A stretch of DNA of 64,000 bases from Amphiscolops sp. MND2022. Its lineage: Eukaryota. The stretch spans positions 26,600,001-26,664,000 of the forward strand of contig OZ076409.1 in assembly GCA_964187785.1 (NCBI GenBank), written 5' to 3'. Positions 11,449 through 14,400 of the stretch are shown piece by piece. Each line of letters opens with the position of its first letter. Within the stretch, counting starts at the first letter, position 1. Made by a program: the position numbers and the translations under genes. Under the pieces are notes generated by a model, which saw only the letters and a program-made list of their open reading frames with translations, did not search any database and had not been told where the DNA came from.

Positions 11449-14400
11449 TTACATCCATGGAATGCTTACAATATTATTCAAATAACATCGCTTCTCATCA
11501 AATGTAGATAAAGAGTTCTTTGTAACCTTTTGAAGAAACATATCATGATCTATAGATCTAATTACAAAATTTTCACATTCTCTTTGATAATTACCCCCAA
11601 ATAAACAGTTATAATATTCTTCAAACTTTATATTCTTACTCTGTGATTTTGAGATACCTTTTAGTTTGTTAGAACTTTCACTACCACATTTATATGCATA
11701 CGCTTTACTTCTCAAACAAACAAATTCATCAATCCAAATACTTCCCGGTGTTTCAATTTTAAATTTACCAAGAACCTTTTTATTTACTTCACTAAATAGC
11801 TTATGCTCTCTATATAAATTGCTGAAATCAAAGAAATCTCTCAGATTATATAAATCGTTAACAATATCTTTCGTATTAACGCTCAAAACAAAACTATCTG
11901 TGTTATGGACGATTAAGGGAAAGCCACAATTGAAGTCATGAGTTTCCGTTTGCAAATCATATACATAATCATTCTTCCTACCTAAATTTACTATCTTATG
12001 AACTTTTTCATCACTCATCTTATTGACTTTAAATAGATTAAAAACATTAAATTTATCATCTCGCATACCAATTGCTGTATTTAATCCTAAAGACTGACAT
12101 AGATAATTTAAACCAGACATTGTAACTTTATTCTTTTGAGAAAATGATATAGTTTTCCTCTTTTTATTCCATCAGCTGCATAAAAGCCAATCAAGAACCA
12201 CTTTCTATTCTCAAGTGTTTCATTCAAGATGTAGGATGGGATCCTTTTTTCTTTATCTTTCGTATAAAAATCTTCAAACTCTAAAGCCATCATCTTCTTT
12301 CCTGAAGAAATTCTATAGACATGGCTCGATTCTCTGATATCATAAATTTGAAAATTCTCATTCCAAACTTCATCAGCATATCGCTTTAACTTCTCAATTA
12401 TTCTGAAATCTAAATTATTCAATGTCCAACAGTACTTCACACCTGAACTGCAGTTGTAAACTCCAGATGATCCATCTCCTAAAAAGAAGCCTTTAACAAA
12501 CATTTCCTTTTCCTTTAAAGACATAGCTTCTGTGTTATAAATCTTATCAATAATCTCATCAAACGTCACACATAACTGTGCTCCAAATTCAAAATGATTA
12601 TGTAATAGTTCTTCCCTTAAAACCAAATCACGAGGTCTGACTACTTCTCTACTCTTATTGAGTAAACTATGATCTTCAGTAACATCGACTATGCCATGTT
12701 TTGTTCTGATTCTATAAATATCTTTTTCTGTCTTATGCCTTATAACCTTCTTAATATCTTTCCAACCTTCACTCGTCCAAACTTGAAGACCATTACCATC
12801 ACCAAAATCTTTATCACCCCAATCAGAAATATCTTTATCATCTCTATACCAATTTTCATCATTAATGATCTCATCAATCCTCAAAATTTTTACGTTCCCA
12901 TTTTCCTTCAAAATAATTGGTGTATCTCCAGTCACGCTATCCATATAATGACAATGTAAATTCTCTTTCCCAAAGTAAGGTTGAAATTTATCATAGTACG
13001 TTTCATACATCAATAACTTGCTCAACTCTAACACACTAAATCCAAGATATATTGGCTTATCCATCAGAACCTCATTCATCTTAAACGTGAAACTATCATA
13101 TTTCTCATAACACTTATGGATCCCATTAAACGTCAACTTAGATTGCCACTTCACCATCTTCTCTTCTTCATCTTTTTTAATGAACTCGATCTTAGTTCTA
13201 TTTCGCACATTCTCCATTGTCTTTCCATAGAACGCATTGTTTAATAGTTTGTAAAAATCTTTCTCAAAATCATTTTTCGTCCTATTTCTTTTCTGAGTAT
13301 TGAAATCAATGTACTTCTCCAACCACTTACTCTGCTTAAAAGAAATCACTTCATGAACTTTCTCAACAATCATACCATGTCTCACATAAAACTTCAACAT
13401 TCGATAATGTATCAAATATTTTTTCTTATCAGTCCAATCACATATTAACTTTTTACATTTAGCATAACTATCATGCTTCATTTTTTTCATATACTCAGTA
13501 AACTTATCTTGAGGTGAAAACTTATTATCTGGACAGAATGGGAAGTTCACAGTCTTCTCTCTTATCCCCTCAGGATATTTCAAGTCAACTTCAACAAAAT
13601 ACCCAACCTCACTATCATCAGGTGTATCTAATATATCTTCCAACTTAACATTACCATCAAATTTTATATCATCATATGGCAAATACTGGCTCATTGCCCA
13701 CCCATATAGATTATTAGCATCAATATATAAAATCTTTTTGTTTTCATCTGATTTAACATATCTATCCCCCATAACAGATGAAATCCCACCTCTAATATTA
13801 TTCTCTAACATTAAGATCATATCTTTATCTTGAAGTGTTTGCAAATTAATCCCAGTATATTTCAATCCACATTCCCAAGTATATCCAGGAAGACTAACAC
13901 AATATAACGGATTGATTTTAAATTCGTTTAATGATACCTTTATGAACTTCTCAAACACATCTGCTAACAAAACAACATCAGTTTTCAAATACAACTCAGT
14001 CAACTCCTTTCCAGTTTTAATCTTAAAAGTTTCAATGATTTCATTTGTTCTCTGAATCTCACGATCTTGAGGATATCCATTTTTCAATCTACTGAAGTAA
14101 TCCTCTTTTACAAGATCTTTAACTGACAACTGATAATCATCAAGAGATTTAAAATATTCATATGGGTACGCCAACTTCTTACTCAACAGCTCCCAATTAT
14201 CAGGAAACTCTCTCTTCAGAATTGTCAACTCATCAACTGTTTTAACCAACCCATCTAAACTACTTGATAAAAATCTATATGAATCTATAAATCTAATACA
14301 ACCATATGAAATTGATATATATTCCTCATTTGTCTTGGGTATGACATGAAGGGGAACATTATCTGATTTTTTATCAATCAATGTTTTAAAGAACAAGTGA

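Follow-up and report, generated by a model that had tools for sequence, protein, structure and literature searches.

A probable intein with a LAGLIDADG homing endonuclease in motif C of a Polinton DNA polymerase in an animal genome

How can a DNA polymerase gene keep an insert that separates the catalytic aspartates of its motif C, and where did the insert come from? These questions are raised by a Polinton's gene for a protein-primed DNA polymerase of family B (pPolB) in the genome of Amphiscolops sp. MND2022. The gene was studied in a stretch of 64,000 nucleotides (nt), hereafter the window, which covers positions 26,600,001 to 26,664,000 of contig OZ076409.1 (assembly GCA_964187785.1); all coordinates below are those of the window. 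An earlier note, made from the sequence alone, had proposed that an intein with all splicing blocks and two LAGLIDADG motifs lies at YMD/SVTGDTP...IVHN/TDS of this polymerase (a slash marks a splice junction), and that the frame of this copy needs repair. The coordinates confirm the placement. As shown by the minus-strand pPolB frame, the insert starts at ...HCHYMD/SVTGDTP..., ends at ...GFPLIVHN/TDSFVLS and occupies 11902-12938, splitting the two catalytic aspartates of motif C (YMD/S...HN/TDS). The codon of Ser1 is at 12936-12938, that of the terminal Asn at 11902-11904, and the +1 residue, the first of the C-extein, is Thr. We put at roughly 0.88 the probability that a class-1 intein, equipped with a LAGLIDADG homing endonuclease of the two-motif kind, lies in motif C of an animal Polinton pPolB, belongs to a Polinton-specific clade and is not a recent import. 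This assignment draws on sequence comparison and on a predicted fold. The features of the polymerase and the intein, numbered in intein residues where residues are named, are as follows.

12939-16061, minus strand: N-extein, protein-primed family B polymerase (PF03175), 1041 amino acids (aa), ending HYMD
11902-12938, minus strand: intein coding sequence, assigned by Pfam and by the predicted fold of the intact sister copy P0003; Hint-N at residues ~1-115, LAGLIDADG endonuclease at ~116-298, Hint-C at ~299-346
12918-12938, minus strand: block A, SVTGDTP, with the Ser1 nucleophile; S1 in 16/16 open copies and nearly invariant in the alignment
12669-12680, minus strand: block B, TEDH (Thr87, His90); invariant in 41 aligned sequences and in 16/16 open copies
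12468-12494, minus strand: first LAGLIDADG motif, KGFFLGDGS, with acidic D155; from the alignment and open copies
12168-12194, minus strand: second LAGLIDADG motif, LIGFYAADG, with acidic D256; from the alignment and open copies
11902-11964, minus strand: blocks F-G, VYDLQTE...GFPLIVHN, with Asp328, His345 and terminal Asn346; from the alignment and open copies
11449-11901, minus strand: C-extein, 150 aa and a stop, starting with TDS (the second half of motif C) and carrying a KAY motif

The window polymerase matched DNA_pol_B_2 (PF03175) in Pfam at 52.7 bits, and motifs A, B, C and KxY are recognisable in this order in its open reading frame (ORF). The sequence YxDTDS is what we take to be motif C of protein-primed polymerases of the phi29 type. 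A phmmer search of PDB sequences with the empty-allele polymerase gave no match at E ≤ 0.01, so the equivalence of this motif C with that of solved protein-primed polymerases is judged from motif order.

The intein of the window copy measures 1037 nt, whereas open sister copies have 1038 nt, or 346 codons. A single one-base deletion breaks the frame just 3' of 12168, directly after the second LAGLIDADG motif, which bears out the earlier call for a frame repair, and the polymerase is read as two minus-strand ORFs, 12108-16061 (1317 aa) and 11449-12171 (240 aa). The window copy is a pseudogene, dead through this frame break within the intein. A natural open sister copy, P0003, with its unaltered 346-aa translation, was used in place of a mended window copy.

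Searches with domain profiles, which had been suggested as a check, were passed by P0003: Intein_splicing (PF14890) scored 41.9 bits against a curated cut-off of 35.8, Hom_end 35 bits (cut-off 21.1) and LAGLIDADG_3 29.9 bits (cut-off 22.5). In an alignment of 41 sequences, T87, H90, G150, G156 and D256 were invariant and S1, D155, D328 and N346 near-invariant, and S1, T87, H90, D155, D256, D328, H345, N346 and T+1 were all retained in 16/16 open copies. AlphaFold2 with this alignment gave a predicted structure of the intein with pLDDT 95.1 and pTM 0.93, which replaced a single-sequence model of pLDDT 35. The predicted structure has the Hint fold that the earlier note had made a test of the intein call, and the best Foldseek matches in the PDB were solved inteins, namely 2cw7 ('intein homing endonuclease II', E 5e-18), TliVMA, PI-PfuI and PI-SceI. 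Chains of I-DmoI matched the middle domain (TMt 0.71-0.77, root-mean-square deviation 2.4-3.2, ~173 columns). At the sequence level, phmmer found only weak matches of the intein in the PDB, to NEQ068 (E 0.0025), I-DmoI and PI-SceI. Pooled pairwise Nei-Gojobori counts among related copies gave rough ratios of nonsynonymous to synonymous change (pN/pS) of 0.08 in Hint-C, 0.14 in Hint-N and one extein, and 0.18 in the endonuclease domain and the other extein. These ratios indicate that the splicing and endonuclease parts both evolved under purifying selection.

To what extent the insert recurs was determined by a DNA search of the whole assembly (1.07 Gb, 1929 contigs) with 11700-13100, which returned 46 matches. 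Among these were 28 full-length places at 94-100% identity, the window included, four places at 78-82% identity, one split copy, and six places with both flanks alone, 8 nt apart. All six flank-only copies were fetched, and the insert was exactly and in-frame absent from them (QYFD/TDAMVLS against HYMD/.../TDSFVLS). Junction-specific 26-mers with at most 2 mismatches identified 28 occupied and 19 empty sites genome-wide, 18 of the 19 empty sites being identical, and reversed-pattern controls of the same 26-mers had no match anywhere in the genome. The intein-free alleles that had been worth looking for among other Polinton copies are present, therefore, as 19 exactly empty sites. Given 28 occurrences, exact in-frame absence at 19 sites, no control match and the Pfam passes, the insert is far beyond chance occurrence.

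The 28 occupied copies were spread over 10 chromosome-scale contigs and 2 small contigs. Sixteen of the 20 close copies fetched were open through intein and C-extein, and four, the window's among them, were broken. A protein search showed an open frame of 1537-1541 aa in 17/28 occupied copies; another 8/28 had shorter frames that still ran unbroken through the intein, and in 3/28 the frame was split inside it. The insert is likewise present in the four copies at 78-82% identity, which contain many stops. Its presence in these copies indicates that the intein has long been resident in the Polintons of this genome. Dozens of other pPolB genes in the genome are intein-free, with open frames of ~1191 aa, and matched with their extein flanks only, at 50-57% identity. 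These extein-only matches indicate that several Polinton families exist in the genome and that the intein is in one lineage only.

Is the intein mobile? One empty copy was 99.2% identical to the window copy in the 3155 bp upstream of the insertion site and 91.6% identical in the following 594 bp, that is, 25 against 50 differences on the two sides (Fisher p 1.7e-23). By a count from the sequences, about 7 of the upstream differences fell within the last 22 nt before the site, and the terminal repeat was again 98.7-100% identical. A second occupied subfamily was at least 98.7% identical per 300-bp interval outside ~11200-13000 and the 51-bp-repeat interval at 20801 (96.7%), and 95.3-97.7% identical over the stretch that takes in intein, C-extein and the terminal flank next to them. 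Synonymous divergence among open copies was 0.014 in the N-extein and higher in the intein (0.046-0.090) and the C-extein (0.062). The C-extein tree united the empty copies in a single clade (SH-aLRT 100); on the N-extein tree they did not form one and required 2 changes. The identity break, the divergence and the discordant trees together indicate that the history of the intein and of what lies downstream is distinct from, and older than, that of the rest of the element, and that the change-over falls at the N-terminal junction. A break located exactly at the insertion site suggests homing or recombination.

Several points weigh against our interpretation of the insert. The window copy of the intein is itself broken, and its two pieces scored 16.4 and 18.1 bits with Intein_splicing, below the cut-off, so the family call comes from the intact sister copies. 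The structure is a prediction. The pairs behind the pN/pS values are non-independent, shared changes being counted repeatedly, and the values carry no confidence interval. Finally, two further patches, 16001-16900 and 25301-25900, are diverged between empty and occupied elements (90-94% identity, the rest >99%). These patches indicate that recombination is general among the elements, need not be driven by an endonuclease, and has left the Polinton lineages mosaic.

Conversion driven by the endonuclease, with a tract to one side only, would produce just the pattern observed at the insertion site, and active homing seems likely, although the two further diverged patches mean that these elements recombine in any case. 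We tentatively go one step further, although with more doubt than belief, and suggest that the intein may be an active, or very recently active, homing drive in an endogenous animal virus, with one-sided conversion resembling break-induced replication. The precursor polymerase made from intact copies would, from the established intein mechanism, be inactive until the intein removes itself. Splicing would begin with an N-O acyl shift at Ser1 and transesterification to Thr+1, followed by cyclisation of Asn346 and an O-N shift joining YMD to TDS. From the insertion point in motif C and the purifying selection it can soundly be inferred that Polinton replication would depend on this splicing. The freed intein would then act as a site-specific endonuclease on empty motif-C sites in the DNA of further Polinton copies or of replicating genomes, and repair from an occupied copy would bring in the intein together with flanking sequence. 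If such a drive operates, empty motif-C sites of sister Polinton genomes would be cut, and the intein and all downstream sequence would be copied to near the end of the genome. This would explain the divergence from ~22 bp before the site through the C-extein, the terminal repeat having been re-homogenised. Should this be true, the intein and its related copies in other assemblies would make up a canonical intein family that is the first to reside in Metazoa and the first to occupy a protein-primed polymerase.

The mobility data may also be read in a different and, in our opinion, unlikely way, in which splicing, which the polymerase needs, persists, the endonuclease is dead and the intein spreads passively with the Polinton. 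Decayed endonuclease domains are common among inteins, 19 empty sites stand beside 28 occupied ones and differ from them in sequence at the site, and the mosaic patches elsewhere in the element are consistent with ordinary recombination. However, the endonuclease domain shows a pN/pS of 0.18, it keeps both LAGLIDADG aspartates in 16/16 copies and (nearly) invariantly across 41 homologues, and its predicted fold superposes on I-DmoI (TMt 0.72-0.77). The sharpest identity break in 16 kb, moreover, falls at the insertion site.

To place the intein among its relatives, an exhaustive phmmer search was used, which gave 2312 proteins at E ≤ 1e-3, 317 of them at E ≤ 1e-30, homologues reaching E 1.5e-83. 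Insertion sites of 203 extracted inteins were assigned by a rule-based classification of their flanks. Motif-C sites of the YGD/TDS type held 191 of the 203 (188 TDS, 3 TDC); the remainder comprised 1 at a motif-B site, 1 in topoisomerase II and 10 in protein-primed polymerases, the last all at YxD/TDS or xSD/TDS. When the 31 top matches were scanned with Pfam, 29 were PF00136 polymerases and 2 were topoisomerase II. The window intein agrees with the pol-c type in site and homology, but its host is PF03175, whereas 29/29 tested PolB hosts of other inteins are PF00136. Close relatives of the intein also occur in topoisomerase II (DQD/S...N/TDGSH) and at the motif-B site of RNA-primed PolB (K[VI]SAN/S), which indicates that the intein lineage has moved between non-homologous sites.

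The protein-primed hosts comprised a 99% cluster of 136 members, several proteins at 65-72% and others at 41-47% identity. One protein at 72% finds no better identity than 73% in the Amphiscolops genome and therefore comes from another organism. Relatives with names included mimivirus, a Promethearchaeota metagenome-assembled genome (MAG) and a 2.5-kb contig of the 'Ca. Thiodiazotropha (ex Ctena orbiculata)' MAG. The 45% relative filed under this bivalve-symbiont MAG is, at a guess, host DNA. Atlas leads for the polymerase family pointed to Arthropoda and Mollusca. Among the 120 best N-extein relatives, only the window's own cluster was long enough to hold an intein, the others measuring 789-1357 aa.

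In a FastTree phylogeny of 204 inteins, all pPolB inteins formed one clade (support 98). IQ-TREE (LG+C20+F+G4, quick search, 54 rows) also placed them, the window's and 10 others, in one clade (SH-aLRT 100) on a stem of 0.65 changes per site. With motif-B-site or topoisomerase II inteins as an assumed root, and with sampling biased to matches of the window-intein query, the pPolB clade was nested among RNA-primed pol-c inteins. It belonged to a group of 39 rows (support 97) into which the inteins of mimivirus and Promethearchaeota also fell, and a polytomy was its sister. Identities of N-extein, intein and C-extein were 76/69/72, 66/65/70, 46/47/46, 42/42/41 and 40/44/43% in comparisons within the pPolB set; one member, P0167, had an intein at 44% and an extein without a BLASTP match. 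The fact that intein identity tracks extein identity indicates long residence in protein-primed polymerases. We read this as a single old entry into these polymerases, plausibly out of an RNA-primed PolB, since motif C is common to both polymerase types, with long co-divergence thereafter. The jump would be ancient, and its donor may plausibly have been a giant virus, an archaeon or another organism.

The earlier note had envisaged a more direct route, in which the intein moved from a large-virus PolB during co-infection, and had named an intein tree that tracks Polinton PolBs as evidence to the contrary. Such a tree was obtained: the pPolB inteins form a long-stemmed clade of their own that follows its exteins, which speaks against the transfer. 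A near-direct jump from an RNA-primed PolB of Nucleocytoviricota into the window Polinton during co-infection of animal cells is accordingly improbable, more so than a dead endonuclease. It does explain some of the data. The mimivirus PolB intein, which starts SVTGDTPIITRH in agreement with the note, is a true homologue, with the same insertion point and start (YGD/SVTGDTP...KN/TDS) and 37% identity over the full length (E 7.7e-52). The nesting of the pPolB clade in RNA-primed pol-c diversity in trees rooted as above also agrees with such a jump, and 169/191 RNA-primed exteins score nearer mimivirus than one archaeal PolB, a crude measure that cannot name donors. On the other hand, the closest RNA-primed intein is only ~45% identical, and the single clade (SH-aLRT 100) is set off by a long stem of 0.65 changes per site. 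Intein divergence matches extein divergence from 76/69/72% down to 40/44/43%, and the sister polytomy includes an archaeal MAG intein. The assumed root and the biased sampling further reduce what the nesting can say. A Polinton-specific intein clade of long standing fits these results better than a recent viral import.

Still less probable is a permanent inserted domain that never splices and is retained in the mature polymerase, like the HNH/VSR insertions of Polinton pPolB2. Polinton polymerases do tolerate nuclease-domain insertions, as two papers describe (PMC10748475, PMC11161782). Here, however, the insert parts the pair of catalytic aspartates in motif C, every splicing residue is conserved, and in the predicted model both ends meet through the Hint fold; a non-splicing domain was rejected on these grounds. 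An artefact, be it contamination from a giant virus, faulty assembly or an intron removed from the RNA, has nothing found in its favour, is hardly credible and was rejected, as the 28 copies lie on 10 chromosome-scale contigs and 2 small ones, the exteins are pPolB (PF03175) and not PF00136, and the insert is an open in-frame sequence under selection that ends AG...AC instead of the GT...AG of a spliceosomal intron.

The intein, in our reading a resident of protein-primed polymerases, sits in an element that is a Polinton/Maverick, since a PF03175 polymerase, an rve integrase and a double-jelly-roll capsid gene are all present. Its other features are listed below.

11047-27200: whole Polinton copy of ~16 kb, its extent taken from similarity to two other copies
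11177-11232 and 11321-11376, against 27068-27123: inverted-repeat-like terminal arms, 56 nt, 89% identity
17355-18584: double-jelly-roll capsid gene, PF21738, 74.8 bits
19894-20745: rve integrase, 47.5 bits
21435-22256, plus strand: P-loop ATPase, with sub-threshold Pfam matches only (AAA_14, 18 bits)
24790-25200: candidate protease, with no Pfam match

The terminal inverted-repeat arm occurs twice, 144 nt apart, at the 11177-11232/11321-11376 end, and other copies show small rearrangements at this doubled arm (11177-11376). Between the integrase and ATPase genes, 20806-21386 is a tandem array of 51-bp units, seen as a BLAST ladder in 51-nt steps, and the number of units seems to vary among Polinton copies. 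Upstream of the polymerase, a small minus-strand ORF (16077-16373) has a C2H2-like start resembling the polymerase N-terminus and three tandem 'VEEQQEPRVLP' repeats. Within the polymerase itself, an HNH-like stretch, CWFCE...DHCH...AHEKCN, was located at 14463-14603 (aa 487-533), with a sub-threshold match to Endonuclease_7 (18.8 bits, cut-off 23.6). The window polymerase seems to carry both a pPolB2-type HNH insertion and the intein. A minus-strand retrotransposon (6831-10042) adjoins the Polinton end and comprises a gag-like ORF, a CCHC zinc knuckle, and aspartic-protease-like and reverse-transcriptase-like frames. Runs of 200 N occur in the window at 7363-7562, inside the retrotransposon, and at 52066-52265.

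The genome was called an animal genome from the outset, and this is borne out by Wnt-domain exons in the assembly (7 matches, best 163 bits), of which 14 control genomes had none. Wnt ligands are specific to animals, and the presence of Wnt genes shows the genome to be metazoan.

What does the intein add to present knowledge? It is a LAGLIDADG intein of the known pol-c type; its host protein family and its kind of host genome are new. According to a 2018 review of eukaryotic inteins, metazoan genomes have none (PMC5784728); the note, too, had said that canonical inteins are not known from metazoan host genes. The absence is used as an argument that intein inhibitors would be selective drugs. 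A complete, mostly intact intein family in at least 28 places of animal chromosomes bears directly on that statement; the literal rule of no intein in metazoan host genes still stands, because the carrier is a virus-like transposon. HNH and VSR nuclease domains have been reported in Polinton pPolB2 in the passages available (Jeong et al. 2023, PMC10748475), and the insertions were interpreted, in part of another paper, as possible 'intein invasions' (PMC11161782). The present intein is a bona fide case behind that suggestion. The words 'intein', 'LAGLIDADG' and 'homing endonuclease' do not occur in the available text of PMC10748475. No description of an intein in a Polinton polymerase was found in the literature covered, which did not extend to Kapitonov & Jurka 2006, so that an earlier mention is possible. 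Inteins are hereby extended to protein-primed polymerases. Dozens of targets within a single genome, some occupied and some empty, make the family a natural system for the study of homing among paralogous copies, and it is a source of a mesophilic, eukaryote-adapted Ser1/Thr+1 intein and of a candidate rare-cutting endonuclease.

Among known systems, the mimivirus PolB intein is the nearest counterpart. It belongs to the wider 'pol-c' intein allele of RNA-primed family B polymerases and was reportedly described by Ogata et al. in 2005. The two share the motif-C insertion point, the SVTGDTP start, TxxH, two LAGLIDADG motifs and Thr+1, and are similar in size (351 aa in mimivirus, 346 aa here). 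They differ in host (PF00136 in mimivirus, PF03175 here), in flank (YGD against YMD) and in end (KN against HN), and the present intein resides in an integrated animal Polinton, with the pPolB inteins in a separate clade. PI-PkoII (2cw7), PI-PfuI (1dq3), PI-SceI (1vde) and TliVMA (7qsu), the best structural matches (E 5e-18 to 5e-13), combine Hint splicing and LAGLIDADG endonuclease domains, as the window intein is predicted to do. However, they are only 12-17% identical to it and larger (361-537 aa), with whole-chain TM-scores of 0.4-0.65. PI-SceI and PI-PfuI have an extra DNA-recognition region, which is probably missing from the window intein, as the solved inteins are larger.

Fungal nuclear inteins home at meiosis. 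The inteins of VMA1 (PI-SceI) and Prp8, as treated in part of the 2018 review (PMC5784728), resemble the present one in having LAGLIDADG motifs, a eukaryotic nuclear genome as residence, and both occupied and empty alleles. Their host gene, however, is single-copy, whereas here the host is a multi-copy mobile element, and the targets would be paralogous copies or replicating viral genomes. The HNH/VSR insertions of pPolB2 are likewise nuclease modules inside animal Polinton polymerases. In the cited passages, in contrast to the present case, they have no Hint domain and appear to be retained, whereas the Amphiscolops insert has the make-up of a complete intein and is accompanied by exact empty alleles.

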